From the NCBI RefSeq assembly GCF_003428155.1, contig NZ_QLIR01000002.1, positions 215,182-247,181 of the forward strand: a DNA stretch of 32,000 nt. The letters are read 5' to 3'. Each line of letters begins with the position of its first letter. Position 1 is the stretch's first letter. The notes beneath the pieces are model-generated. The model was not told the DNA's origin, searched no databases, and was given only the letters and a program-made list of their open reading frames with translations. Below, piece after piece: positions 1,370 through 32,000 of the stretch. A program made the translations under genes and the position numbers. This DNA comes from Fastidiosibacter lacustris. GTDB taxonomy: Bacteria > Pseudomonadota > Gammaproteobacteria > Francisellales > Francisellaceae.

Positions 1370-3541
1370 TTGGAGTATATTGTGCAGTCATATCAACAGG
1401 ATAGTGGTATTTTAGCATTTGTTCAGGTGGCTAGTTTATATCAAATTGCACTTGATCCTAAAACGATTCATCACCAATTTGCAACGACTAATCAAGCGTT
1501 AGATTGTCAGACGTTGTTGCGCGCAATCAAACGAAATGGCTTTAAAGCAAAGCTTGTCAAAACAGAACCAAGTACTATTCATTCATCTGCTTTACCTGCA
1601 ATTGCATGTGGGAAAACGCATTATTTTGTAGTGGTTGGTATTAATGATAAGCATGAATACTTGATTATCTCACCACACAATACAGAGCTTGTTCGTTTGT
1701 CTTATGAAGAATTTAGTGAACTGTTTGCCAATAAAATAATTTATTTAAATCCACAGGGGCAAGGATCAAACAAGAAAAGTTTTAATATCAAATGGTTTAT
1801 TCCAGTGTTTTGGAAGTATAAACATGTATTTAAGGATGTGTTGATTGCTTCATTCTTTTTGCAATTATTTGCTTTAGTCACACCATTATTTTTTCAGGTG
1901 GTGATGGATAAAGTTGTTGTGCATCAAGCACTCACTTCACTTGAGATTTTAGCCATTGGATTTGTTGCAGTGAGTATATTTGAAATGCTGTTGGGCTCAA
2001 TTAGAACGTATTTATTTGCGCATACAACAAGTCGGGTGGATGTAGAACTTGGGACAAAGTTGTATCAGCATTTACTAAGTTTACCCTTGGCTTATTTCGA
2101 AGCACGACAGGTAGGACAAAATGTAGCACGCGTGAAAGAGTTAGATAATATTCGTCAATTTTTAACCAGTAGCGCATTAACGCTTATTATTGACTTAGGG
2201 TTTACTTTTATCTTTTTTGCAGTGATGTGGTTTTATTCTGCTAAATTGACCTTGATTGTTTTAGCGACAATTCCTTGTTATGTTTTATTATCTTTGTTTA
2301 TTACACCGATTTTAAAATATCGTCTAGACAAGGCATTTAAGGAGGGGGCGAAGAATCAAGCTTTTCTAACTGAATCTTTAACAGGTATTCAAACCATTAA
2401 AGCCGCTGCAATTGAACCACAAATGCAGCATAGATGGGAAGATAATCTATCCAATTATGTACGCACGAACTTTCGTGCGTAAAACTTAAGCAATATTACT
2501 TCTCAAATTGCTCAATTTATCAATAAACTCACCATTTTGCTAATCATCTTTTTTGGCGTGAATTTAGTAATTATGGGAAGCTTAACCATTGGTCAGCTCA
2601 TCGCTTTTAATATGTTAGCAGGGCGTGTTACAGGACCGATTTTGAAAGTAGTACAATTATGGCAGGATTTTCAGCAGGTCAGTATTTCCTTAAAGCGTTT
2701 AGGGGATATCTTGAACAGTAGACCTGAGGAAGAGCCAACGAATATGCAGCATAAGCTTACCAAAGTTGAAGGTGAGATTGAATTTAAAAATGTGCATTTT
2801 CAATATCAGATTGATACTCCAGCGGTATTAAATAATATTTCATTTATCGTAAAACCTGGTCAATCGATTGGTATTGTTGGTCGTTCAGGGTCAGGGAAAA
2901 GCACGCTAACTAAGCTTATTCAAAGGCTTTATGTTTCGCAATCTGGTAGGATTTTACTTGATGGTGCTGATATATCATCCTTAAGTGCCGTGTGGTTAAG
3001 GCAGCAAATTGGTGTGGTATTGCAAGAGAACTTTTTGTTTAACCATAGTATTCGTGACAATATTGCATTAACTTGTCCTGGTATTGCACTTGATTTAGTT
3101 GTGCATGCCTCAAAGCTTGCAGGTGCGCATGAGTTTATTGTGAAACTTAAAAATGGTTATGACACTATTGTTGAGGAGCAAGGTGCAAATTTTTCAGGAG
3201 GACAAAAGCAGCGTATTGCAATTGCTAGAGCCTTGATTAATGAGCCAAAAATTTTAATTTTTGATGAGGCAACTTCAGCCCTTGATTATGAATCAGAGTA
3301 TATTATTCAACAAAATATGGCTGCAATTGCTAAAGACAGAACACTTTTTATAATTGCACATCGATTATCGACTGTTAAGCATTGTGATCAAGTTCTTTAT
3401 TTAGATCAAGGTCAGATTGTTGAACATGGAACACACGATGAACTTATTGCCCAAAATGGGCACTATGCGAAGTTGTATCAAGCACAATTTGTAAAAGTGG
3501 GTGTGAATCAGGAGGATAGTCAATGCAAAAAGTATGGATAA
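1370..3541 (+). pseudogene. HlyB/LssB-type type I secretion ABC transporter (N-terminal C39-like domain, TMD, NBD) interrupted by one in-frame TAA at 2480-2482
   Basis: ORFs 1370-2482 and 2537-3541 are in the same frame, with no other stop between them. Read-through gives ...NYVRTNFRA*NLSNITSQIAQFINKLTILLIIFFG..., a continuous protein of about 720 aa. The N-terminus has QQDSG in place of the C39 QxxxxDCG motif, plus HYFVVV. The NBD has Walker A GRSGSGKST, signature FSGGQKQR and Walker B ILIFDEATSALD. Confidence 0.8.
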
Positions 3542-4932
3542 AATTTAAAAGATTTTGGCAAAATAGAGCAAATTTGAATGAGAAGCGACACCAGCAAAGA
3601 GATGCTTTAAATTTTCTGCCAAGTGCGTTAGAAATACAAGAGCATCCTCCACATCCTGTTGCGCGTGTGATGATGTGGATTTTGGTAAGCATCATCGTAT
3701 TTACCTTGCTTTGGGCATGTATTGGCAAAATGGATGTGATTGTGATAGCGCAGGGAAAAATTGTCCCACAAGCACAAGTGAAAATTATTCAACCATTGGA
3801 AAAAGGTATCGTTAAAGCGATTTACGTTAAAGATGGTCAGTTGGTCATGAAAGAGGAATTATTGCTAGAGTTAGACCAAAGTGTTACCCAAACTGATATT
3901 GAGAATTTGGCACATCAATTAAAGGTTGCTCAACTTATGTTGGCACAACACCAAACGGTCTATAATTTACTCACCTCACATGAGTTTATTGAAATGCGTT
4001 TTGATGAGGTTTTGATTCAAAGTCATGGCTTTTCTGAAATGGAACAAGAATCGCTTAAACAATTGGTATGGCGTAAATGGCAGGTATATGTTGCCGAGAT
4101 TAATCGTTTAGAAGCAAATGTAAACGTTGCAAAAGCTGAGTTAAATGCAGCACAAGAACAAATAAAAATGCTAACTCAAACTGTACCTATCATCCGTGAA
4201 CAAAATAAGATGTATCACGCGTTACATCAAAGTGATTTTGCGTCAAAAGCAGAGTATCTACAAAGTCAAAAAGATTTGATTGAGAAAGAGCAATTGTTAG
4301 CGCAATCAAATGCAACTTATGCTCAATTACAAGCAAATTTGGCGAGTCATATCAGTGAGCTTAAGCGAGTTAAAGCTGACTATTTTGCCCAAAGTTTAGA
4401 ATCTATTGAAATGGCAAAAAAGGACGTTAACATACTCTCAAAGGAACTCACTAAATATGAGCTTATGCAAAGAGAGCAAAGTTTAAAAGCTCCTATTACT
4501 GGCTATATCCATAATCTAGCTGTTCATACATTAGGAGCAGTTGTAACGTCCGCGCAAATGCTGATGCAGATTATCCCTAAAGCCAGTCCATTAGAAGTAA
4601 ATGCTACAATCCCAAATAAAGACATTGGCTATTTGCATGAAGGGCAAAAGGTAAGAATAAAAGTCGATACCTATCCTTTTACCGAGTATGGATTTTTAAC
4701 GGGTAAAATACTTGAAATAACTGATGATGCAATTGAAGATGAGCGTTTGGGATTAGTGTTTAAGATCATGGTAAGCCTTGACCAAAACACACTTCAAAAA
4801 GGCAATAGCAGTTTTGCTATTCGTCCAGGTATGTCGGTGATAGTTGAAGTTAAAACACATGAAAGGCGTATTATAGAATATTTTTTAAGCCCATTAGTTA
4901 AAGCGTTTAAAGAGAGTTTGCATGAACGATAA
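3523..4932 (+). CDS. HlyD-family type I secretion periplasmic adaptor (membrane fusion protein)
   Basis: The N-terminus FLPSALEIQEHPPHP, a single TM helix and GKIVP resemble HlyD. It has a long coiled-coil middle and a C-terminal beta-barrel region (APITGYIHNL, GMSVIVEVKT). It overlaps the end of the ABC gene by 19 nt. Confidence 0.88.
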   Translation: MQKVWIKFKRFWQNRANLNEKRHQQRDALNFLPSALEIQEHPPHPVARVMMWILVSIIVFTLLWACIGKMDVIVIAQGKIVPQAQVKIIQPLEKGIVKAIYVKDGQLVMKEELLLELDQSVTQTDIENLAHQLKVAQLMLAQHQTVYNLLTSHEFIEMRFDEVLIQSHGFSEMEQESLKQLVWRKWQVYVAEINRLEANVNVAKAELNAAQEQIKMLTQTVPIIREQNKMYHALHQSDFASKAEYLQSQKDLIEKEQLLAQSNATYAQLQANLASHISELKRVKADYFAQSLESIEMAKKDVNILSKELTKYELMQREQSLKAPITGYIHNLAVHTLGAVVTSAQMLMQIIPKASPLEVNATIPNKDIGYLHEGQKVRIKVDTYPFTEYGFLTGKILEITDDAIEDERLGLVFKIMVSLDQNTLQKGNSSFAIRPGMSVIVEVKTHERRIIEYFLSPLVKAFKESLHER

Positions 4933-10126: not shown

Positions 10127-11542
10127 TTAATGCAAGTTTAATTTATAAAGGATGTGATCATAACGGTTACCGCTCACTTGCTGGTGATTTGGCAAAAGCA
10201 TGTCAAACTGAAAACCCAAGCGCTTAGCTACTTTTTGACTTCTTTTGTTTTCAACTGCGCAACTTATCGATACGTCTAATAAATCAAACGCATGAAATCC
10301 GTAATCAATCAATGCTTTAACAGATTTTGTCATAATTCCTAATCCAAGATAATCTTGAGCTAACCAATAACCAATTTCAGCACTTTTAGTTTGTTGGTGG
10401 ATAGAATTAAAACTCACTATCCCGATAAGCTTATTTTCAATAAAAATACCTAAAATTAAGCTTTTCTGCTCCAAGAATCCCTGATGGGTAAAATAGATAA
10501 AATCGACCGCATCTTGCAGTTGCATCAGTACATTTGCCCATTCAAACCACATCTGTAGATGGTTTTGATTGTATAACTTTAATTGATGTAAGCTTTCTGC
10601 ATCACATGGTCGCAATAACCTAAGCTTAATAACACCATCCACAGGAATAATAAGCTTTTCTAATCTTTCCAATTGTTGGTAAATTACTTGCGTAACAGGT
10701 ACCTTGATATTTTTCTTTTTGGCCATTTCAATGAAGTTATGGTAAATACTGCCAAGTTCCATTGGTTTGCCTTCATTATAGTCATACCACATACTAAAGT
10801 AAGCTCCTCTATATTCAGATCTGGTCAATGCATGGATAAGGTTATTTATCTTGTCCGTTGATAAGAAAACGTTATAGGCTTTCGCAACCTCAATGACTTC
10901 ATTGCCAACATCGGTTATTATCTTAACTGTTTTTATGTCTTTTGCCATGCTGGGCATGTCTTGCTGAGATATGACTGATACACCGTTACAAGAAGCACTA
11001 ATCAATAATTTTTGAAAGCGTAAATCCAGCACACTTTTTTCTTTAATAACTTCATCAAATATATACTTTAACACATATTCAATGTGCGTATTTTCACAAT
11101 TAGTGCAAAACGCATAATTTAAGTTAGACAAATGATTATGCCATGTGATCACATTAGCATGTTTACTGACTTTAATGTGACTAATTGCCCCAATTATAAC
11201 ATTACTCTTATGAATTAAACTTAATAATTTTTCCTCTTCACCAATTCCATTTTGGATCATTACAATAGTTTTATTTTTGAGCTGCGCTAACTGGCTAAAA
11301 ACAACATCATTTGCCGTTGATTTTGTACAAATAAAAATGACCTCTCCATTTATTTCTGCAACGTTTGTTACAATGTCATCGAAATTTGCATAAGCCTCTA
11401 TATTACCAACAATTTTCAAATTTATAGAAATATGATTTTGACTCATTTCTTTAAATACTAGTTGCACAGGAATACCTGCGCATTTTAATTTCACTGCAAT
11501 AAACCCACCCACTGCGCCTACGCCAATAATGCTGACTTTCAT
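10127..11542 (-). CDS. fusion protein: ketopantoate reductase (PanE/ApbA)-like N-terminal two-domain module plus a C-terminal RimJ/RimL-type GNAT N-acetyltransferase
   Basis: The N-terminus MKVSIIGVGAVGGFIAVKL is a Rossmann GxGxxG motif. FQKLLISASCNGVSV resembles the PanE xxKLxxNxxxN helix. The last roughly 170 aa carry GNAT motifs (IGIVSF...AEIGYWLAQDYLGLGIMTKSVKALIDYGF, ENKRSQKVAKRLGFQF). The ATG at 11542 is preceded by AGGAAG; the listed GTG at 11548 is less likely. Confidence 0.7.
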   Translation of the reverse strand: MKVSIIGVGAVGGFIAVKLKCAGIPVQLVFKEMSQNHISINLKIVGNIEAYANFDDIVTNVAEINGEVIFICTKSTANDVVFSQLAQLKNKTIVMIQNGIGEEEKLLSLIHKSNVIIGAISHIKVSKHANVITWHNHLSNLNYAFCTNCENTHIEYVLKYIFDEVIKEKSVLDLRFQKLLISASCNGVSVISQQDMPSMAKDIKTVKIITDVGNEVIEVAKAYNVFLSTDKINNLIHALTRSEYRGAYFSMWYDYNEGKPMELGSIYHNFIEMAKKKNIKVPVTQVIYQQLERLEKLIIPVDGVIKLRLLRPCDAESLHQLKLYNQNHLQMWFEWANVLMQLQDAVDFIYFTHQGFLEQKSLILGIFIENKLIGIVSFNSIHQQTKSAEIGYWLAQDYLGLGIMTKSVKALIDYGFHAFDLLDVSISCAVENKRSQKVAKRLGFQFDMLLPNHQQVSGNRYDHILYKLNLH

Positions 11543-11613
11543 GTGCACTTCTTCCTGGTTATGCTCAATTTATGTTATATTGCCATGATATTAATAAAAT
11601 AAGAATTACGTTT

Positions 11614-20177: not shown

Positions 20178-21317
20178 ATGATTATTGGTATTCCTAAAGA
20201 AATTAAAAATCATGAATATCGTGTTGGGTTAACACCTGGGAATGTTGCAGAGTTTGTTCATCATGGTCATAGCGTATTGGTTGAACATGATGCAGGTGAT
20301 GCAATAGGGTTTTCAAATGAAAGTTATATAGAGGCGGGTGCAAGCATTGTTGATGATCCAGCCCAAATATATGCTAAAGCTGATATGATTATTAAAGTAA
20401 AGGAGCCTCAACCTAATGAATGTAAAATGCTGCGAAAAGGACAGCTCCTGTTTACTTATTTGCATTTAGCACCTGATCCATTACAAACGAAACTCTTATT
20501 GGAATCAGGCTGTACTGCGATTGCTTATGAAATGGTTACTGATAAAAATGGTCGATTACCTTTATTAACTCCAATGAGTGAGGTGGCGGGGCGCTTGTCT
20601 GTGCAAGCTGGTGCCCATTGCCTAGAAAAAGCTCAAGGCGGTAGTGGTGTGCTTTTAGGTGGTGTGCCAGGTGTGAAATCAGCAAAAGTTGTAGTTATTG
20701 GTGGGGGTGTTGTGGGTTTAAATGCAATTCGCATGGCGATTGGTATGGAAGCACATGTAACGGTGTTAGACAAATCTCTAGATCGCCTACGGGAATTAGA
20801 TGATTATTTTGGTCCTAAACTTAATTGTATCTATGCAACGAAGGATAACCTTGAAAAATATGTGCAAGAAGCAGATTTGGTGATCGGTGCAGTATTAGTG
20901 CCAGGGGCGGCTGCACCTAAACTTGTAACAAGAGAAATGATCAAAAATATGAAAAAAGGTTCAGTCGTTGTTGATGTTGCCATTGATCAAGGAGGCTGTT
21001 TTGAAACTTCAAGACCAACAACGCATCAAAACCCGACCTATGTAGTTGATGGTGTGGTGCATTATTGTGTTGCTAATATGCCAGGTGCGGTTGCAAGAAC
21101 CTCAACGGTTGCTTTAAATAACGCGACGCTTCCGTTTGCATTGCAACTTGCTAACAAAGGTTATAAGAAGGCAATTGTTGAGAATGTGCATCTAGAGCAT
21201 GGCTTAAGCGTTCATAATGGAATGCTAACTTCACTGCCAGTGGCGGAAGCCTTAAACATTCCTTATGTAAATCCTCTGGAAGCCTTAAATAGCAAAGGAC
21301 AAGCATTTGTGGCATAA
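20178..21317 (+). CDS. ald: alanine dehydrogenase
   Basis: [30 protein letters not shown] fold [35 protein letters not shown]. Confidence 0.93.
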
Positions 21318-21728
21318 ACCAAATAATTCAATGGTGTGTTGACTAATAGCAAACGCACTTTTTTGTGCGAGTTTTTGTAATGTTTGATCTAGTTGTTCAT
21401 CGTGTTGTTCGATCTTTGTGCCACAGTTTTTGCAGATAAATAGCTGGCAAATGTGTTTTTCTGGATGACAACAAATCGTATAGCAATTGGTTGTATGGAT
21501 GCGATGAATCAATTCATTTTGACACAAAAAATCTAAGACGCGATAGATAGACATGATGTTGTAATTTTTATCCTTGCTTTGCTCGTTTAATTTAGCAAGC
21601 AACTCATAAGCTGTAATCGGTTGGTTTTGTTCAGATAAAAGAAGAATGATGAGCTTACGTAAACTTGTAAGCTTGATGCTGTGCTTTAAGCAATGGCTTT
21701 CTATGTGTGCAACAACGTTATTCATCAT
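21285..21728 (-). CDS. zur: Fur-family zinc uptake regulator
   Basis: Winged-helix region LT..R..IL.LL......TAYEL, then two CxxC pairs (CKNCGT ... CHKC). Last gene of the znu operon, and a Zur box sits at the operon promoter. Start placed at the ATG at 21728, 2 nt after the znuB stop; the listed upstream extension overlaps znuB. Confidence 0.8.
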   Translation of the reverse strand: MMNNVVAHIESHCLKHSIKLTSLRKLIILLLSEQNQPITAYELLAKLNEQSKDKNYNIMSIYRVLDFLCQNELIHRIHTTNCYTICCHPEKHICQLFICKNCGTKIEQHDEQLDQTLQKLAQKSAFAISQHTIELFGLCHKCLSFAI

Positions 21729-21730
21729 TT

Positions 21731-22525
21731 TTACTGCCACATTAGGTTTTTGATAAGACCGATTATATAAATCAAACAAATAATCATAGTAATACAAAAG
21801 CTGGCAGGAAGGTTAACATAAAATGCTAAACATAACGCCCCCCAAACGCTAATAAGCGAGATCATAATACTTAGAAGCATGCTTTTATAAAATCCATCGC
21901 TCCATTGAAAGGCGCTAGCAGCTGGTCCAATAAGAAGAGTAAATACTAAAAGTGCGCCAACAATTTGGCATGCCATTGTGACTGTGAGTGCCAAAATAAT
22001 GAAAAAAATCATCGACAGTAATCTGCTTGGAATGTTTTTAGATTGGGCAATAATAGGATCAATTGAGCAAAAAAAGAGTGATCTGGCAACAATAGATAAT
22101 GCACATATAATTATGATGGCCATAATTAGTAGTATGATAATCTGTCTATAAGAAACCGTTAGAATATTTCCAAACAAAATTGACATAATCGAGCCAGAGT
22201 AACCAGTTTGATATAGATAGAGAAAATAAGCACCTAAACCTAAGAAAAAGGTGAGAACGATTCCAATGGCAAGGTCATTTTTTTTAATTTTGTCTCCCAT
22301 AAAGCCCATGAAAATTGCCGCAATCATGTTTGCAATGAGCTGACCATTCATGGCAGAGACTCCAATTAACACAGCACCAGAGGCACCGGTAAGGCTGATG
22401 TGACCTAAGCCGTGTGCAGCAAAAGCAGCTTTACGTAACACGACAAAAAAACTTACGATTCCACAGATAATAGCAATGAGGGTACCTGCAATAAAGGCAT
22501 TTTGCATGAAACTATAAAATAACAC
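21731..22525 (-). CDS. znuB: zinc ABC transporter permease
   Basis: Polytopic ABC-3 family permease of about 260 aa, overlapping znuC by 14 nt. The operon context includes a cluster A-I binding protein, an ATPase and zur. Confidence 0.85.
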   Translation of the reverse strand: MLFYSFMQNAFIAGTLIAIICGIVSFFVVLRKAAFAAHGLGHISLTGASGAVLIGVSAMNGQLIANMIAAIFMGFMGDKIKKNDLAIGIVLTFFLGLGAYFLYLYQTGYSGSIMSILFGNILTVSYRQIIILLIMAIIIICALSIVARSLFFCSIDPIIAQSKNIPSRLLSMIFFIILALTVTMACQIVGALLVFTLLIGPAASAFQWSDGFYKSMLLSIMISLISVWGALCLAFYVNLPASFCITMIICLIYIIGLIKNLMWQ

Positions 22526-23255
22526 TTTTATCCTCCGTCAAACAGGGTAATTGTGGGCATAAATGGACGTGACCATTTTTAAAATGAATAAAATTATCCA
22601 ACTCGTGCGCAATTTCGTGCATATCATGTGAAATTATCAATAAAGTAATATTTTGTGATCGATGAATTTTCTTGAGCGCATCGATAAAATCATGTTTGGC
22701 TTGCGGATCAAGGTCAGCTAAAGGCTCATCTAATAAAAGTAATTTGGGACTGTTAACTAATGCTTGTATGAGGTAGATGCGTTTTTTTTGACCGCCAGAT
22801 AGAGTTTCAAAAGCTTGATTTGCATAGCTTGATGCGCCAACGATCTCAAACAACTGATCAAGCATTTTATTGAATTTTTGACCAAAAAAAGGCATGCCGA
22901 ATTTATTGGATTTAAAACTTGCTTTTACAAGCGTTTTACCAGAAATATGCTGGCTTAGATTAAGCTCACGTTCCTGTGGGATATAGCTGATTAAATCGTT
23001 ACAAATCCCCACGGGTTTATCAAATACTGTTAATTGTCCAGAGATAGGTGGTTGGATTCCTAAAATGCTTTTTAAAAAAGTGGATTTTCCGATACCATTT
23101 TCACCAACAACTCCTAACCATTGATTTTGGTAAAGACTAAGGTTGATTGGTTTGGATAATTGGTGTTTACCATGCCCAAGCACAAGGTTATGGCATCGTA
23201 TGATAGTTTGTTGCATATTCATTATTTTGCGTTCTGAGTGAAGTATTAGTGTCAT
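22512..23255 (-). CDS. znuC: zinc ABC transporter ATP-binding protein
   Basis: Walker A GENGIGKST, signature LSGGQKKR, Walker B LLLLDEP, H-loop ISHD. The start is uncertain; an internal Met 11 codons downstream (MNMQQTII) is possible. Confidence 0.85.
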   Translation of the reverse strand: MTLILHSERKIMNMQQTIIRCHNLVLGHGKHQLSKPINLSLYQNQWLGVVGENGIGKSTFLKSILGIQPPISGQLTVFDKPVGICNDLISYIPQERELNLSQHISGKTLVKASFKSNKFGMPFFGQKFNKMLDQLFEIVGASSYANQAFETLSGGQKKRIYLIQALVNSPKLLLLDEPLADLDPQAKHDFIDALKKIHRSQNITLLIISHDMHEIAHELDNFIHFKNGHVHLCPQLPCLTEDKSVIL

Positions 23256-23317
23256 TTAATTATTGTATTACTTTTACTTTTGTTGGAATAGCGTCGCTAT
23301 TTTATAGAGTGTCCTGT

Positions 23318-24202
23318 TTAATTTTGCTTATTAAAGGCTTTTTCTAGTGCCTTTTGTGTCTCCTCTAAATTTGCGTTAAGCCAAGTAATCACATTGTCAT
23401 TTTGTGGCATGGTTTCTGATATTCCAACTGTTGGGATTTGATTCTCTGTAGCAAGGTTTAGAATGTTGTCGATCACATTATCCTGAACTTGTTGATTGTA
23501 GAATAAAACCTTTACTTTTTTTTGATTGAATAGATTTTGATAGTCAATAAGCATTTTAGGTGTCGGTTCAGCATCATTCATTATTGCCCACTGAAATTTT
23601 TCGCCTAACATTTTTAAACCAAGTGCTTCTGCCATATAGCCAAAAACAGGCTCAGTTGCGGTAACGGCTGTTCCTGCAAAGTGTCCCTTTATTTCATTTA
23701 TTTTGGCATAAACCATTTGATAACGTTCATCAAATGTTTTCATGTTGAGTTTAAAGGTCTTTTCATACTCTGGTTCTAATTGGCTAAAAACAGTTGTTAA
23801 TTTTTTAGCTAATGTTGGAAAGGTATTGGGGTTATACCATAGGTGAGGGTTATCACCACTTTTGGCGTTCATAAGAGCAGCAACATCAATAATTGTAATG
23901 TTATTATTACTTTGTGCATTTAATAATTGTTTTATCCAGGGATCATAATCGGCACCATTGTAAATTACAACTTGTGCGTTATTTATAGCAATCGCAGTTT
24001 GAGTTGAAGTAGTGAAAAGATGTGGGTCAGCATCAGGGTTGTTAATGATGCTAGTTGTTGTAACATAGTCTCCACCAATTAAGCTTGCAACGTTTTCGTA
24101 GAAGTTTTCTGCTGCTACGACTTTAATTTCCGCAGTGGCTTGGTTGTAAAGTAGTATAGTTGTAATGAATATGAAGGTTAAACAAGTCAGTTTTTTGAGC
24201 AT
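23318..24202 (-). CDS. znuA: zinc ABC transporter periplasmic binding protein (cluster A-I, ZnuA/TroA-like)
   Basis: Signal peptide MLKKLTCLTFIFITTILLYNQATA and metal-ligand motifs DADPHLF and NPHLWYNP. Start placed at the ATG at 24202, which is preceded by AGGAGA at good spacing. The listed longer ORF would run through the Zur box. Confidence 0.85.
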   Translation of the reverse strand: MLKKLTCLTFIFITTILLYNQATAEIKVVAAENFYENVASLIGGDYVTTTSIINNPDADPHLFTTSTQTAIAINNAQVVIYNGADYDPWIKQLLNAQSNNNITIIDVAALMNAKSGDNPHLWYNPNTFPTLAKKLTTVFSQLEPEYEKTFKLNMKTFDERYQMVYAKINEIKGHFAGTAVTATEPVFGYMAEALGLKMLGEKFQWAIMNDAEPTPKMLIDYQNLFNQKKVKVLFYNQQVQDNVIDNILNLATENQIPTVGISETMPQNDNVITWLNANLEETQKALEKAFNKQN

Positions 24203-24225
24203 GATAATTCTCCTGGATAAAAAGT

Positions 24226-24246
24226 AAATGTTATAATATATCATTT
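24226..24246. promoter_or_regulatory. Zur box (operator) at the znuACB-zur promoter
   Basis: AAATGTTATAATATATCATTT is a 21-bp near-perfect palindrome, one mismatch from the gammaproteobacterial Zur consensus AAATGTTATAWTATAACATTT. It lies 24 nt upstream of the znuA start. Confidence 0.8.
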
Positions 24247-26301: not shown

Positions 26302-28746
26302 ATGGAATATGTGGTGCACAAGTTTGGCGGGAGTAGCCTTGCAGATGTTATTAAAATTAAACACGTGATGAGAATTATTGGCACCACAGCACAATCAGTC
26401 GTTGTTTCTGCAAGTGGGAAAACGACCAGCTTATTAAAAAAGGCAATTGAACTTGCTTTAGAGAATAAAAGTAATCATAAGGTGCTTGAGCAGATTAGTG
26501 AACATCATATGACACTAATCAATGGCTTATGTCCAGATAATAAAAGTGTAATCAAAATTTTTAAAAAGGATATTGAGTATTTAAAACAAATATTGTTGAC
26601 TATTTGTTTAAGTGGCATTTGTGGGGATGCTCTGGAATACTTCATTCTTGGGTTTGGTGAGCTGTGGTCAGCACAGATTTTAACAGTAGTATTACAGCAA
26701 AATGATATTCAAGCTCAGTTTGTTGATGCGTCTACCGTTTTATTTATCGATGACCATCAAAAGCCTGTGGTAATTGATTGGCAAAGAAGCCAACAAGCCG
26801 TTGATAAACATATTATCGATAGAGCGAATAAGATTTACATTATTACTGGATTTATTGCACAAAACCAAGAGGGTAATCGTAGTATTTTAGGTATGAATTG
26901 CAGTGATTACTCATCGGCAATTTTTGCTAAATTGTTACAGGCGAATAAGCTTGTTATTTGGACGGATGTAGCTGGTATATATAGTGCTAATCCTCAAGTT
27001 GTAAAAAATGCAAGGCAGCTTAAACAATTATCATATAAAGAAGCTTTGGAGCTTGCTTATTTTGGTGCGTCAGTCGTGCATCCATTAACGATTAATCCAA
27101 TGATGGAAATGGGTACTCCAATTGAGATTAAAAGTAGTTTTGACCCACAAGATCCTGGAACGGTGATTGTAAAAAAACTTGATCAAGAAAACCTTGCTCA
27201 GTATCTTATCAAAGGATTAACAAGTATTTCCAATGTGGCACTCATGCGTGTGCAAGGTGCTGGTATTATCGGTGTGTCAGGTATGGCAGCAAAGGTATTT
27301 TCAGTACTTGAGCAGGCGCAAGTTTCAGTGATGATGATTTCACAGTCAAGTTCCGAATACTCGATTTGCTTTGCCATTGAATCTAAGTTTGCTAAGAAGG
27401 CAACTAAAGCGCTTGAACGGCATTTTAAAGCAGAGATTGAGCGTGGAGATATAGAGCATATTTACTGCGAAATAGGTTATGCACTTGTCACGGCGGTGGG
27501 AGATGGTTTAAGAGCACAGCCTGGTGCGTTGGCACGCGTGATTAAACCATTAGCTGATGCTAAAATCAATATTCATGCGATTACACAAGGTTCATCTGAA
27601 CGTAGCATCACAGTGACGGTTAAACAATTAGATGAGGATTTGGCGCTTAATTTGATTCATCAGCAAGCAAAGAACCCACCTCTACAAAACTTGGCAGTTG
27701 CAATTATTGGTACTGGTGGAGTTGGTAGCGAACTGATTAAACAGTTGCAAGCACAAAAAGCAAATCTTGAGGCAAAAAGCATCAATTTACAGTTGGTTGC
27801 TCTATTGAATTCTACAAATGCGCTTTATGCAGATGATCTATTAGTAAAAGAAAATCTATTAGGTTTGCTTAAAACAAACGTTGGTGGTCACTCTGACCTT
27901 GATCAGTTAATAAATCATATGCAAGCTTTATCTTGTGCACATAAAGTGATCGTGGATGCAACGGCAAATAGTATAATTGCTGAAAGTTATATTAAGTTTT
28001 TGCAAAATGGGATGAGTATTGTGACACCAAACAAATATGCCAATACCCAATCGATGGCTTATTATCAAACATTAAGAGCAACTGCTCAGCTGCATAACGT
28101 TGAATTTAAATATGAAACAAATGTTTGTGCGGGCTTGCCTTTGATTAGTACTATTCAAAGTATGCAACTAACGGGAGATAAAATTACTAAGATTAAAGGA
28201 GTTTTTTCAGGAACATTAAGCTTTATTTTCAATCAGATAAATCAAGGCAAAACTTTTGTTGAAAGTTTAATGTTAGCTTATAACGATGGCTACACTGAAC
28301 CTGACCCACGTGAAGATTTATCTGGCATGGATGTGGCACGTAAAGTGGTATGTTTAGCACGTGAAATTGGCTTAAGTATCGAGTTAAGTGATATTAACGT
28401 GCAGAACTTAACACCCACTGAATTAAGAAATTGTACAAAAGAAGTGTTCTTGGCAAAGGTTGCAGATTATGATCAGGCATTAACGGATAAATTTAAGAAG
28501 CTCAAAGGCAAATTAGCTGCACTACATTTTATTGGTGAAATTAATGTCAGCGGTAAGGTTGTTGTTTCTGTTTTGCCGTTAGAAGAAACAAGCCCATTTG
28601 TGAATTTAACAGGTGTGGATAATATGGTTTTGATTTATTCTAAACGCTATTGTAATACACCTATGGTGATTAGAGGTGCTGGTGCGGGGACAGAAGTAAC
28701 AGCAGCAGGTGTGTTTTCTGATATTCTATCGCTTGTTCGTGTATAG
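26302..28746 (+). CDS. thrA: bifunctional aspartokinase / homoserine dehydrogenase I
   Basis: N-terminal kinase VHKFGGSSLAD, WTDVAGIYSANP, ACT region and C-terminal homoserine dehydrogenase (IIGTGGVGS, TPNK, GAGAGTEVTAAGVFSDIL). Start at MEYVVHKFGG is preceded by AAGGTGG. Confidence 0.9.
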   Translation: MEYVVHKFGGSSLADVIKIKHVMRIIGTTAQSVVVSASGKTTSLLKKAIELALENKSNHKVLEQISEHHMTLINGLCPDNKSVIKIFKKDIEYLKQILLTICLSGICGDALEYFILGFGELWSAQILTVVLQQNDIQAQFVDASTVLFIDDHQKPVVIDWQRSQQAVDKHIIDRANKIYIITGFIAQNQEGNRSILGMNCSDYSSAIFAKLLQANKLVIWTDVAGIYSANPQVVKNARQLKQLSYKEALELAYFGASVVHPLTINPMMEMGTPIEIKSSFDPQDPGTVIVKKLDQENLAQYLIKGLTSISNVALMRVQGAGIIGVSGMAAKVFSVLEQAQVSVMMISQSSSEYSICFAIESKFAKKATKALERHFKAEIERGDIEHIYCEIGYALVTAVGDGLRAQPGALARVIKPLADAKINIHAITQGSSERSITVTVKQLDEDLALNLIHQQAKNPPLQNLAVAIIGTGGVGSELIKQLQAQKANLEAKSINLQLVALLNSTNALYADDLLVKENLLGLLKTNVGGHSDLDQLINHMQALSCAHKVIVDATANSIIAESYIKFLQNGMSIVTPNKYANTQSMAYYQTLRATAQLHNVEFKYETNVCAGLPLISTIQSMQLTGDKITKIKGVFSGTLSFIFNQINQGKTFVESLMLAYNDGYTEPDPREDLSGMDVARKVVCLAREIGLSIELSDINVQNLTPTELRNCTKEVFLAKVADYDQALTDKFKKLKGKLAALHFIGEINVSGKVVVSVLPLEETSPFVNLTGVDNMVLIYSKRYCNTPMVIRGAGAGTEVTAAGVFSDILSLVRV

Positions 28747-28881
28747 CTTAATCATTTTGGTTTAAAGAGCAGCATTTTGACGAGAAAAAAGTTAGAAATT
28801 GTAATTGCTTAGTCTGAAAGGATTTGTGTCACACTTATTTATGATAGACTACAACCAGAAATAAACTAGTCAGACAAAGCA

Positions 28882-30054
28882 ATGAAGCAAATCTACCTTG
28901 ATTACGCATCTACAACACCCGTTGCACAAGAAGTTATTGACGAAATGCTCAAATATTTAAGTTTTGAAAATATATTTGGGAATCCTGCATCCAACACTCA
29001 TGAATATGGTTGGTATGCAAAAGAGGCTGTGGATAAAGCAAGGCAGCAGGTTGCATTATTAATTTGTGCCGACAGTCGAGAAATTGTGTTTACATCAGGT
29101 GCTACTGAATCCGATAACCTTGCAATAAAAGGGGTTGCAGATGCTTATGCCAATAAAGGCAAGCATATTATTACATCTTCGATTGAGCATAAGGCTGTGA
29201 TTGATACTTGTGCTTACCTTGAGACAAAAGGCTATACAGTAAGCTATTTAGTACCCGATCAAAAGGGTCAGATTACAGCTGAACAAGTCATGCAAACAAT
29301 ACAACCAGATACGATTTTAGTGTCGCTTATGGCAGTCAACAATGAGCTTGGAACATGCTATCCTTTAGCAGAAATTGGCGCTTTATGTAAAGAAAACAAG
29401 ATTTTATTTCATGTGGATGCTGCGCAAGGCTTTGGTAAAATTGATGTTGATGTTAGAGCGATGAACATTGATTTGCTATCGATTTCAGCACATAAAATTT
29501 ATGGACCTAAAGGTGTAGGTGCACTTTATGTACGTAGAAAGCCTAAAGTGAAATTAACACCCTTAATTCATGGTGGGGGGCATGAAAATGGTTATCGCTC
29601 GGGGACCTTGGCTACTCATCAAATTGTGGGCTTAGGACAGGCTTGTGTACTTATGCAAAAAAAAGGTAACTCTTTTTATAGACACGTTGAAAACTTAAGA
29701 GCGATTTTTTTAAAAAAGATAGAAGCTTTACCAAATATTACGATTAATACACCACTGGCAAACAGTTATCCTGGCATTGTTAATATCACTTTCGAAGGAG
29801 TTGACGGTGAAGCATTGGTTGCAATGTTACATAACCTTGCTGTATCGATGGGCTCAGCTTGTAACTCAGCAAGCATTGAACCTTCATTTGTATTATTAAA
29901 TATCGGTTTGAGTCAGCAGCAAGCACATGCAAGTTTACGTTTTTCATTTGGACAATATACAACTGTAAGAGAAGTACATATAGCAGCAGATTCCGTTGTT
30001 GCTGCGGTAACAAAATTAAGAGCATTATCAGAGCAATGTGGTATGGGGGTGTAG
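28882..30054 (+). CDS. IscS-like class I cysteine desulfurase (PLP-dependent), about a dozen residues shorter at the C-terminus than E. coli IscS
   Basis: Colinear with E. coli IscS as recalled from memory: IYLDY.STTPV, FGNPAS, VFTSGATESDNLAIKG, KHIITS..EHKAV, PLP-Lys motif SAHKIYGPKGVGALYVRRKP, GGGHE.G.RSGT, active-site loop GSACNSASIEPS. It ends LRALSEQCGMGV. Confidence 0.88.
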   Translation: MKQIYLDYASTTPVAQEVIDEMLKYLSFENIFGNPASNTHEYGWYAKEAVDKARQQVALLICADSREIVFTSGATESDNLAIKGVADAYANKGKHIITSSIEHKAVIDTCAYLETKGYTVSYLVPDQKGQITAEQVMQTIQPDTILVSLMAVNNELGTCYPLAEIGALCKENKILFHVDAAQGFGKIDVDVRAMNIDLLSISAHKIYGPKGVGALYVRRKPKVKLTPLIHGGGHENGYRSGTLATHQIVGLGQACVLMQKKGNSFYRHVENLRAIFLKKIEALPNITINTPLANSYPGIVNITFEGVDGEALVAMLHNLAVSMGSACNSASIEPSFVLLNIGLSQQQAHASLRFSFGQYTTVREVHIAADSVVAAVTKLRALSEQCGMGV

Positions 30055-30390
30055 ATGTACAGTAAAAAAGTACTCTCGCTTTTAGATAATATTAATTCTA
30101 CAGATTTTCTGCCAAGTAAAACCGTTTTAAAGCAAGTTAAAATAGGGGAAGGCATGCAGCAGATTATTATTGCATGTGACGATAATCGCTATTATTTTGC
30201 TGCTATTGGTAGTCCTTATTTACTAGCAATGGGTAAATGGTTGAAGGACAATTTACAGCAAGGTACATGGATGAAGATTAAGGACTATCAAATCACCGAT
30301 TTAGTGGAATATTTTTCATTACCTGAGCATAAGCGCCAAGATGCGTTGTTAATTTTGAATTTAATTGAGCAGCTAAATCTAAATGCGTGA
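30055..30390 (+). CDS. small hypothetical protein with an IscU/NifU-N-like sequence pattern but lacking all three Fe-S ligand cysteines
   Basis: The ATG immediately follows the desulfurase stop. By-eye alignment to E. coli IscU: MYSKKVLSLLDNINSTDF vs MAYSEKVIDHYENPRNVGSF, FAAIGSPYLLAMGKWL vs FKTYGCGSAIASSSLV, and LPEHKRQDALLILNLIEQL vs LPPVKIHCSILAEDAIKAA. The CDS call is fairly solid; the family assignment is tentative. Confidence 0.6.
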   Translation: MYSKKVLSLLDNINSTDFLPSKTVLKQVKIGEGMQQIIIACDDNRYYFAAIGSPYLLAMGKWLKDNLQQGTWMKIKDYQITDLVEYFSLPEHKRQDALLILNLIEQLNLNA

Positions 30391-31093
30391 TAACCTTGAA
30401 AATGCAGTGATTTTGCACAGCCGAAAATACAAAGAGTCTTCACTGTTATTAACCTTATGGTTGCAATCTCATGGTAAGGTGAGTGCAGTTGCTCGAGTGA
30501 GTAAAACAAAAAGGACAGCATTTTTATATGAACCATTTTGTTTACTAAATGTTGAAATAAAACTTGCACATTCAGCTGAAGCCTTATCAACCATCAAATA
30601 TGTAGAGCTTGAAAAAAGCTATACCTTAGGCAGTTATTTATCACAGTTATCACGTTTATATTTAAACGAACTGTTATATTGGTTACTCCCTTTTGATCAT
30701 CATGATAAAAAATTATTTGACTGCTATCTTGCAGTGATCAGTGGACTTATGACTGATGAGGTAGCACCTTTATTACGCTACTTTGAATTACAATTATTAG
30801 AGAGCATTGGTTATGGCTTTTCGTATCAGTTCGATGAGAAAGATAATCCAATTGATCCAAACGGATATTATGAGATGTCAGCCTTATCAGCATTTTATCA
30901 AACTACACCAGGGAATGGAGTATTAGGTAAGACAATTTTAAAACTGGGTGAACCTGTATCTTGTTGGAATAACAAAGAGCTCGCTGTATTACAAAAACTA
31001 ATTCGCTTGAATTTAGATGCGTGTTTACATGGGAGAGCATTAAAAACACGAGAGTTGTTGATTAGTTATTTGCATGGATGTAAAAGCCGTTAA
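30383..31093 (+). CDS. recO: DNA repair / recombination mediator protein RecO
   Basis: The N-terminal OB-fold region AVILHSRKYKESSLLLTLW...GKVSAVAR resembles E. coli AFVLHSRPWSETSLMLDVF..GRVRLVAKG. It also has YLNELL, LRYFELQLLESIGYG and C-terminal LKTRELL. Overlaps the upstream ORF by 8 nt. Confidence 0.88.
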   Translation: MRDNLENAVILHSRKYKESSLLLTLWLQSHGKVSAVARVSKTKRTAFLYEPFCLLNVEIKLAHSAEALSTIKYVELEKSYTLGSYLSQLSRLYLNELLYWLLPFDHHDKKLFDCYLAVISGLMTDEVAPLLRYFELQLLESIGYGFSYQFDEKDNPIDPNGYYEMSALSAFYQTTPGNGVLGKTILKLGEPVSCWNNKELAVLQKLIRLNLDACLHGRALKTRELLISYLHGCKSR

Positions 31094-31107
31094 TTTTTGT
31101 TAATGGA

Positions 31108-31131
31108 AGTACCTAAGTACCTAAGTACCGT
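31108..31131. repeat. tandem octamer AGTACCTA, about 2.75 copies, lying in the loop of an 8-bp inverted repeat (31098-31105 / 31137-31144)
   Basis: Read directly: TGTTAATG-GA-AGTACCTA-AGTACCTA-AGTACCGT-AGTGT-CATTAACA, starting 5 nt after the recO stop. Confidence 0.7.
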
Positions 31132-31648
31132 AGTGTCATTAACAAGAGAAATTGTTGGACTAATCGGTGCGACGATGCTCTCCACTAAAAGCATATAGGT
31201 CCACAGGATATGGGACTGTTAAAATCACCTAAGCAGCTTTATAAAAAAATCCAAGCAACTGTAATTCATCTAGGTGATCAGGCAACACATGCAACTGACA
31301 ATACGAGACTTTGGTTCATCTTAACAAGCATAATGGTGACAATAATGTAAACAAGATAAGTGCTTAGTGCACAAGAAATCGGGTGACAACTAGTTTGATA
31401 CCTACTGTTTTGAGAATGCTAAAATACAGTATTTTTATTTGAATTAATACGGTTAATGTTTATCTTGGTATAGGATATAATCGGCGTGATACTGCTTACG
31501 GAAGAGTATGTTTGCAGTTAGGAGGTTAGGTAATAATTAGTTGGATGCTTAACTGAAAGAGGTCGTTATATTCTCTGATATATAGTTACAATCTCTCATG
31601 AATTCGAAGCAAAATTGGGCTGTGTCTAGTGAAGGAAAGGAGTAAAGA

Positions 31649-31825
31649 ATGCTTGAAACAGAAAAAGAGCTATTAATAAAAGCGGTTAGTAATCCAGTGT
31701 ATGCTAATATTGATACGTGGGAAATTATCAATAATCCATGGCTGCGACCGCTACGACCGTCATCTTTCAAATATTTGAATTCAATCTCTACGCTTGGTGA
31801 GAAGATTTATGCAGAAAAATTATAA
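31649..31825 (+). CDS. hypothetical small protein (58 aa)
   Basis: ATG preceded by AAGGAG with a 6-nt spacer. Translation: MLETEKELLIKAVSNPVYANIDTWEIINNPWLRPLRPSSFKYLNSISTLGEKIYAEKL. No recognisable family. Preferred over the antisense ORF 31549-31770, which needs a TTG start and has no Shine-Dalgarno (SD) sequence. Confidence 0.4.
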   Translation: MLETEKELLIKAVSNPVYANIDTWEIINNPWLRPLRPSSFKYLNSISTLGEKIYAEKL

Positions 31826-31848
31826 AAGAGACTTTTATTTTTTGTGGG

Positions 31849-31896
31849 CAGGTCAATCACTAAACGTATTAGGTGTATAAGTTTAGACTTGACCTG
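31849..31896. other. long composite stem-loop (8 bp + 6 bp stems)
   Basis: CAGGTCAA-TCA-CTAAAC-(15 nt)-GTTTAG-AC-TTGACCTG. A T5 run begins 10 nt downstream on the + strand and a T-rich tract lies upstream. Possibly a terminator for the small ORF or an operator. Confidence 0.35.
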
Positions 31897-32000
31897 ACAG
31901 TTGCCTATTTTTCAAACGCGATTTTTGTCAGATATGGTTGAGCAATTCAACCTTCTCTTGCCAGTGCGTTTTCCCATCAGTAAAAGTTGCTATTGGTGTT

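Follow-up and report, generated by a model that had tools for sequence, protein, structure and literature searches.

We analysed a window of 32,000 nucleotides from Fastidiosibacter lacustris (contig NZ_QLIR01000002.1, positions 215,182 to 247,181), in which three consecutive genes on the forward strand (28882-31093) encode an IscS-type cysteine desulfurase, a protein of 111 residues that databases annotate as ‘hypothetical’ and without a Pfam domain, and RecO. The small protein is a homologue of the iron-sulfur (Fe-S) cluster scaffold IscU, which has retained the fold of this family but has lost every residue at the positions of the cluster ligands, and which accompanies the desulfurase in related genomes with substitution patterns that indicate purifying selection. 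It represents a divergent branch of a well-known family that is new and lacks annotation and whose genomic arrangement is conserved, but not a new kind of system. With respect to its role, we favour on balance a scenario in which it is a degenerate IscU orthologue within the remnant of an isc operon that would bind the desulfurase as a non-catalytic subunit, with recO being a long-standing passenger of the operon outside this mechanism.

The products of the first two genes are 100% identical to NCBI entries of F. lacustris, a member of the Fastidiosibacteraceae (Gammaproteobacteria, Thiotrichales). All three open reading frames (ORFs) are real genes, and their positions are the same as in a previous reading of this DNA that was based on its letters alone (the sequence-only reading). 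The locus contains the following features:

28882..30054, forward strand: IscS-type (type I) cysteine desulfurase, 390 residues (Pfam, NCBIfam, alignment to E. coli IscS)
30049..30057, forward strand: stop-start junction of desulfurase and small gene, GTG TAG ATG, with a GGGGG Shine-Dalgarno-like run before the ATG (sequence)
30055..30390, forward strand: IscU-fold protein, 111 residues, all Fe-S ligand positions substituted, positional orthologue of iscU (AlphaFold2, Foldseek, hhalign)
30383..30390, forward strand: overlap of the small gene and recO, 8 nucleotides, ATGCGTGA (sequence)
30383..31093, forward strand: recO, 236 residues, with its start within the last 8 nucleotides of the small gene (RecO_N, RecO_C, TIGR00613)

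The ATG of the small gene (30055) directly abuts the TAG of the desulfurase with no nucleotide between them, and the tight packing of the three genes described by the sequence-only reading, including the stop-start junction and the overlap with recO, is thus borne out.

IscU homology and ligand loss in the small protein

The relationship of the small protein to IscU has escaped direct searches. The 111-residue sequence matches no model of Pfam or NCBIfam, with NifU_N remaining undetected even at E≤1, it finds no entry in a sequence search of the PDB, and its alignment to the single sequence of E. coli IscU with hhalign yields a probability of 2.5%. Since these direct searches found nothing, establishing its homology to NifU_N required structure and intermediate profiles. 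A model obtained with AlphaFold2, with a predicted local distance difference test score (pLDDT) of 90.6 and a predicted template modelling score (pTM) of 0.85, displays the α-β3-α4 topology found in IscU. When this model was compared to the PDB with Foldseek, ranks 1-35 were all occupied by IscU or ISCU (template modelling (TM) scores 0.65-0.70), and the best match was to the chain of IscU in its E. coli complex with IscS (3lvl_A, TM 0.67, probability 1.0). A profile of the small-protein family searched against 1.84 billion proteins retrieves 43 cluster representatives, which divide into 24 ligand-less members and 19 members that are more IscU-like. NifU_N is matched at E<0.01 by 17 of these 43 relatives and, upon individual rescans of ten of them, nine score between 33 and 89 bits and thus above the gathering cut-off of 22 bits. 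The ligand-less and the more IscU-like members align over their full length in hhalign with a probability of 99.4% and an E-value of 8.9e-22. Structure and profiles thus agree with the proposal of the sequence-only reading that this is a protein with the fold of IscU that is devoid of its ligands.

Named NCBI entries among the 43 relatives are restricted to F. lacustris, Caedibacter taeniospiralis, Francisella halioticida and metagenome-assembled genomes (MAGs) assigned to Francisellaceae and Woeseiaceae. The heavily sequenced species F. tularensis, F. novicida and F. philomiragia do not occur among the cluster labels, and the small protein may be absent or unrecognisable in Francisella sensu stricto. 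In the literature searched, whose coverage is incomplete, we found no description of a ligand-less IscU, of an iscS-recO operon or of a relevant IscS or IscU from Francisella, which is in keeping with the earlier impression that the gene trio has not been described.

In an alignment to E. coli IscU, the positions of C37, D39, C63, H105 and C106 are occupied by Gly, Gly, S53, Q95 and D96, with the loop containing the first two reading GEGMQQ. The term ‘cysteine-less’, by which the protein had initially been described, holds for these ligand positions but not for the entire chain, which contains one cysteine (C41) that is replaced by Ile or Arg in the closest relatives. C37 is retained in none of the 43 relatives, some of which keep C63, H105 and C106 together, and no ligand has survived in the subfamily of the F. 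lacustris protein. This absence of ligands argues against the binding of a cluster and, since the small protein contains no conserved cysteine, a relay of persulfide appears unlikely as well.

In E. coli, binding to IscS depends on the N-terminal 12 residues of IscU including Tyr3, whose deletion (1-12) abolishes the interaction, and it is equally abolished by the mutation K103E (PMC2854127). The 111-residue protein keeps the equivalents of both residues, Tyr3 as Y2 and Lys103 of the sequence LPPVK as K93 of LPEHK. Within the 24 ligand-less members, the position of Tyr3 is a tyrosine in 20 cases (with one gap), Gly62 is invariant and Lys103 is conserved as Lys or Arg in 23, which ranks these three docking positions among the best conserved of the subfamily, with the motif LPxxK being retained. 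The small-protein family is further characterized by the highly conserved motif LPxHKRQD and by a strongly conserved surface helix of the sequence G[SD][PA]YLxAMxKWLQ, which is specific to this family and not found in canonical IscU.

The residues at positions 53 and 96, both former sites of cysteine ligands, covary: all 14 members with Ser at the first position have Asp or Glu at the second, and 7 of the 8 members with Asp have Asn. As the combination S53/D96 is found in Fastidiosibacteraceae-type members and Asp/Asn in Francisella-type members, the covariation tracks two clades, and this clade structure prevents a firm reading. Judged from sequence, the metal site could have been replaced by a hydrogen-bond pair, or the two residues could still bind metal weakly. 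The second option would be relevant for an alternative that we regard as quite improbable, where the former cluster pocket, consisting of Ser/Asp or Asp/Asn in combination with Lys, Arg and Gln, would bind Fe2+ or Zn2+ as an iron donor or would sense the metal status and signal it to the desulfurase. The non-random, covarying replacement of the ligands and the high conservation of LPxHKRQD are compatible with such a role, but the two-clade pattern could equally reflect metal-free hydrogen bonding that stabilises the fold. Moreover, the small protein does not contain a site rich in His or Cys, and we know of no protein with an IscU fold that binds metal without cysteines.

The desulfurase and the conservation of the locus

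The first gene of the trio encodes a protein that matches the Pfam family Aminotran_5 (5e-89) and aligns to residues 4-385 of E. coli IscS with an E-value of 4e-126 and about 60% identity. Lys205, which binds pyridoxal phosphate (PLP) in the motif SAHK, and Cys327 in the loop GSACNSAS, part of SMGSACNSASIEPS, align with K206 and C328 of the E. coli enzyme, confirming what had been noted from the sequence. The protein thus carries the hallmark of type I enzymes, a PLP lysine combined with a catalytic cysteine on a long mobile loop. It falls below the IscS equivalog cut-offs of NCBIfam (PRK14012, 536.3 vs 548 bits; TIGR02006, 534.8 vs 643.2) and passes the looser subfamily model NF002806 (313.1 vs a cut-off of 304), in accordance with its NCBI name ‘IscS subfamily cysteine desulfurase’. 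Its scores on NifS models are lower than on IscS models and its score on the SufS model amounts to 188 bits compared to a cut-off of 475, which identifies the partner of the small protein as IscS rather than SufS. We also considered and rejected an identity as DndA, since the score on TIGR03235 (439.5 bits) is below both the cut-off of 480 and the IscS scores; neither the window nor the related loci showed dndBCDE-like neighbours.

The C-terminus of the desulfurase (LSEQCGMGV) corresponds to residue 391 of the 404-residue E. coli IscS, of which it lacks the last 13 residues (392-404), and the canonical tail ...SPLWxMYKxGVDLxxVEWxxH is not matched. Every desulfurase found beside a gene for a degenerate IscU is similarly short and devoid of the ...MYKxGVDLxxVEWxxH tail. 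The shortening recognised by the sequence-only reading is thus real, but it does not remove a region of contact with IscU as had been suggested. This contact is made by helix α12 (E. coli residues 379-391; PMC2854127), which is retained in its length, whereas the loss is limited to the tail beyond it. The other IscU-contacting helix, α8, is conserved (EGESLIMA vs DGEALVAM). The residues of IscS that contact TusA (W45, E49, D52, R55 and R220) are kept in the F. lacustris enzyme and lost in F. halioticida. An additional cysteine close to the C-terminus (EQCGMGV), to which attention had been drawn, is indeed present, but it is unique to this genome, with relatives reading LSPLW, and we have rejected its significance because of this lack of conservation. 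We also noticed a separate set of IscS-like proteins (P0108, P0095, P0141, P0082 and P0088, from Marinobacter, Hahellaceae and metagenome sequences), which with 381-385 residues are shorter still than the F. lacustris enzyme and end just after an ...RLR motif.

For the characterization of related loci, we combined the search with the family profile with a genome scan using an alignment of 10 sequences. The order desulfurase, small gene, recO is found in every related locus that offers enough sequence, so that both the pairing and the linkage to recO recur, as the earlier reading had proposed to check. Carriers of the trio include C. taeniospiralis, five Cysteiniphilum genomes, F. halioticida and several MAGs including one from Francisellaceae. 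The trio is also present in two metagenome lineages (L008 and L022), where IscS is about 55% identical and the IscU-like protein has retained C63, H105 and C106; the L008 locus in addition carries Dot/Icm genes. At all 11 related loci where it was measured, the distance between the desulfurase and the small gene lies within -11 to +7 nucleotides. Most relatives have an overlap of 4-20 nucleotides between the small gene and recO, while measurement of this junction revealed inserts of 155-202 nucleotides in three Cysteiniphilum-type loci, at the following positions:

L011, 4316-4470: insert between the small gene and recO
L013, 5340-5494: insert between the small gene and recO
L010, 5337-5538: insert between the small gene and recO

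The inserts of L011 and L013 are homologous to each other and carry an inverted repeat (…GCAGGTAGTAG…CTACTGCC…), whose hairpin-like character resembles a small repeat element, and the insert of L010 is different. Because only the junction between the small gene and recO is broken, the desulfurase and the small protein look like a functional unit with recO as a looser passenger.

The RecO protein itself is ordinary, with matches to RecO_N (1e-13), RecO_C (6.4e-8) and TIGR00613 (67.9 bits vs a cut-off of 48.7). One could suppose that RecO cooperates with the desulfurase and the small protein, perhaps in a DNA transaction that depends on sulfur. Some support for this could be seen in the location of recO 3' of the small gene, which holds for all loci of sufficient length and extends to the two distant lineages, in the usual overlap of its start with the stop of the small gene and in the score of the desulfurase on the DndA model. 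We nevertheless consider such a cooperation very improbable, as this score remains below the one obtained for IscS with no dnd genes nearby, three loci have inserts between the small gene and recO but none has a broken junction between the desulfurase and the small gene, the RecO protein has an unremarkable domain composition, and iscA instead of recO is found downstream in more IscU-like relatives.

In Cysteiniphilum-type loci, the pairwise ratio of nonsynonymous to synonymous substitution rates (dN/dS) spans 0.08-0.35 in the small gene, compared to values of 0.06-0.11 in the desulfurase and of 0.06-0.17 in recO. The small gene is thus under purifying selection but less tightly constrained than its neighbours. 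Such looser constraint might be expected if the small gene was a functionless remnant of iscU awaiting deletion, and in favour of this view it can be noted that the small protein evolves faster than both neighbours, with identities within Fastidiosibacteraceae of 46-49% compared to 71-77% for the desulfurase, that its dN/dS is roughly twice that of the neighbours and that it scores below all family models. However, the ORF is intact at a length of 99-124 residues in 24 sequence clusters, dN/dS stays far under 1, motifs show little or no variation and the predicted fold is confident, leaving an already disfavoured explanation that we find hardly credible.

The more IscU-like relatives offer a view on the likely origin of the trio. 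In L019, the desulfurase is followed by an IscU-like protein without C37, IscA, ndk and rlmN, and IscA-like N-terminal fragments are found downstream in L018, which has a gene for a trmJ-like SpoU methylase upstream, and in L020. L008 and L022 contain iscS, an iscU retaining C63, H105 and C106, and recO, whereas in Fastidiosibacteraceae and Francisellaceae iscS is followed by the gene of the ligand-less IscU and recO. From their gene content, the loci of the more IscU-like relatives look like shrinking isc operons. The graded series of loci and the short desulfurases beside degenerate IscU proteins suggest that the trio is a decayed isc locus with the small gene as the positional orthologue of iscU, a decay that is documented by the intermediates of the series. 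At the trio locus, iscR, iscA, hscBA and fdx are all absent, with the desulfurase being followed only by the degenerate iscU, and no matches to IscR or IscA were found in the window or in trio loci.

A promoter scan of 28600-32000 did not identify a promoter-like site on the forward strand, the sole terminator-like site within the trio is a weak stem of 5 pairs at 30332-30347 and a search of Rfam revealed no element in or after the operon. We have also considered, and rejected, a horizontal transfer of the trio, as the composition is uniform with a GC content of 0.33-0.39.

Candidate functions of the small protein

In the favoured scenario, the 111-residue protein would no longer be able to hold a cluster or to accept persulfide, while the stop-start junction would keep its production in step with that of the desulfurase. 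The IscU fold, the conservation of docking residues and the coupled translation have led us to propose that it is a non-catalytic subunit, which still docks at the ancestral site of IscU at the C-terminal tip of the desulfurase. There it would most likely stabilise or gate the enzyme, thereby controlling access to the mobile cysteine loop and with it the consumption of cysteine or the choice of acceptor. The desulfurase would then serve sulfur trafficking for thio-nucleosides and cofactors rather than cluster assembly of the iron-sulfur cluster (ISC) type, which in these genomes would presumably be carried out by another system.

Several observations limit this proposal or weigh against it. 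The model of the small protein was built from an alignment of 3 sequences, with 2 out of 5 models being confident, and in an AlphaFold run of the desulfurase and the small protein fused into a single chain, the small part reached pLDDT values of 30-55, which are too low to be informative about an interface. Other positions of IscU that are involved in contacts (Y11, G38, V40 and K42) are not conserved. E. coli IscU speeds IscS by accepting sulfur, and since a protein lacking the required cysteines cannot do so, there is no straightforward role as activator. Finally, bound IscU excludes TusA in E. coli, and a permanently bound copy could thus hinder tRNA thiolation or restrict the acceptors, unless the interface has changed.

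The same components could be accommodated in a different manner, if the IscU-derived protein was a specificity adaptor that binds the desulfurase in order to bring in or position a particular sulfur acceptor such as MnmA, ThiI or a TusA-like protein, thereby replacing part of the Tus relay. This would provide a purpose for the family-specific surface helix that canonical IscU lacks, and the retention of TusA-contact residues in F. lacustris together with their loss in F. halioticida hints at an altered use of acceptors. The sequence-only reading had pointed to the proximity of mnmA, which is located 2.7 kb from the trio on the opposite strand. However, mnmA is found near the trio in none of the related loci; like thrA and def it is a neighbour only in this window, with flanking genes varying by lineage, and we have rejected the link since the neighbourhood is not conserved. 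No acceptor gene travels with the pair in the related loci viewed, and a conserved cysteine for persulfide relay is missing in the small protein. We thus judge an adaptor function to be unlikely.

A more far-reaching version of the subunit proposal, which we put forward tentatively as possible but doubtful, would hold that the IscU fold has been repurposed to regulate a type I desulfurase as an obligate subunit without chemistry of its own, which throttles or redirects the release of sulfur from the old scaffold site and which has arisen during the decay of ISC in Fastidiosibacteraceae, Francisellaceae and related metagenome lineages. If correct, it would be a bacterial counterpart of the control of eukaryotic NFS1 by accessory proteins, and the graded relatives, where C37 was lost first, followed by C63, H105 and C106, would record a transition from a scaffold to a possible sulfur relay and further to a pure regulator.

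Among the closest known systems is the IscS-IscU pair of E. coli (PDB 3LVL; Shi et al., 2010, PMC2854127), which shares with the F. lacustris proteins the gene order of desulfurase and scaffold, an IscS of about 60% identity, the IscU fold, the N-terminal tyrosine, Gly62 and the lysine of LPxxK. It differs in that the F. lacustris small protein lacks any ligand, is 17 residues shorter and is not recognised by NifU_N, that the desulfurase lacks its last 13 residues and that iscR, iscA, hscBA and fdx are not found at the locus. The truncated ISC locus of Mycobacterium tuberculosis, where iscS is reported to remain alone beside a complete SUF system (PMC10848736), provides a precedent for an IscS-type desulfurase that outlives the rest of its operon. 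In F. lacustris, by contrast, a scaffold-derived gene has been retained, is translationally coupled to the desulfurase and is under purifying selection. The retention of an Fe-S biogenesis fold after loss of a cluster-ligating cysteine has also been described for the degenerate A-type carrier domain of NfuA (PMC8593673). That domain differs in its fold family and is joined to a functional Nfu domain, whereas the small protein is free-standing and has no cluster-binding part. An accessory protein without chemistry of its own is known in ISD11/LYRM4, which is described as a non-catalytic stabiliser of eukaryotic NFS1 (PMC4948766); the likeness to a small protein that would keep a type I desulfurase stable or active is one of analogy only, as the fold and the binding site are unrelated.

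A further system to be compared is SufU of the Bacillus type. This protein of IscU-like fold is a sulfurtransferase and a partner of the desulfurase rather than a classical scaffold. It resembles the small protein as an IscU-fold partner of a desulfurase but depends on its Zn-binding Cys and Asp residues and on an acceptor cysteine, and its desulfurase partner, SufS, is of type II, whereas the F. lacustris protein has none of these residues and a type I partner.

Few known proteins are as highly conserved as IscU, and it is usually defined by its cysteines. The persistence beside IscS of a ligand-free version, which is under purifying selection across several families, suggests that the contact between IscS and IscU is valuable apart from cluster assembly. 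The pair could be viewed as a natural experiment that separates what IscU binding does to the desulfurase in structural or regulatory terms from the role of IscU as sulfur acceptor, a separation that is hard to achieve in model systems, where cysteine mutants of IscU still sit within the full ISC pathway. It also supplies a so far unannotated family for annotation. Fastidiosibacteraceae, Francisellaceae and related lineages include cysteine-requiring organisms and, as the relatives include Francisella and Dot/Icm lineages, the pair could matter for the sulfur and cysteine economy of intracellular bacteria.

Other features of the window

About 5 kb upstream of the desulfurase, on the reverse strand (21285-24244), a gene for a Fur-family regulator overlaps the end of a cluster encoding ZnuA, an ABC ATPase and an ABC-3 permease, which resembles a Zur/znuABC-like locus for metal uptake. 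The approximately 900 nucleotides 3' of recO (31094-32000) contain only short ORFs of 33-73 residues and neither an Rfam match nor a tRNA; one of these ORFs, encoding 58 residues on the forward strand (31649-31825), precedes a terminator-like hairpin at 31936-31952. Further away, a single reverse-strand ORF of 473 residues (10127-11548) combines a ketopantoate reductase (ApbA and ApbA_C) with a C-terminal GNAT acetyltransferase domain. Close to the start of the window (1370-4932), a bacteriocin or RTX-type exporter is seemingly split into a C39 peptidase with an ABC membrane domain (1370-2482) and an ABC ATPase (2537-3541), which are followed by an HlyD-family gene (3523-4932). This may be either a frameshifted pseudogene or a true two-part transporter, and a similarly split C39/ABC_membrane gene is found in the neighbourhood of the F. 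halioticida trio (L006, 8997-9974).

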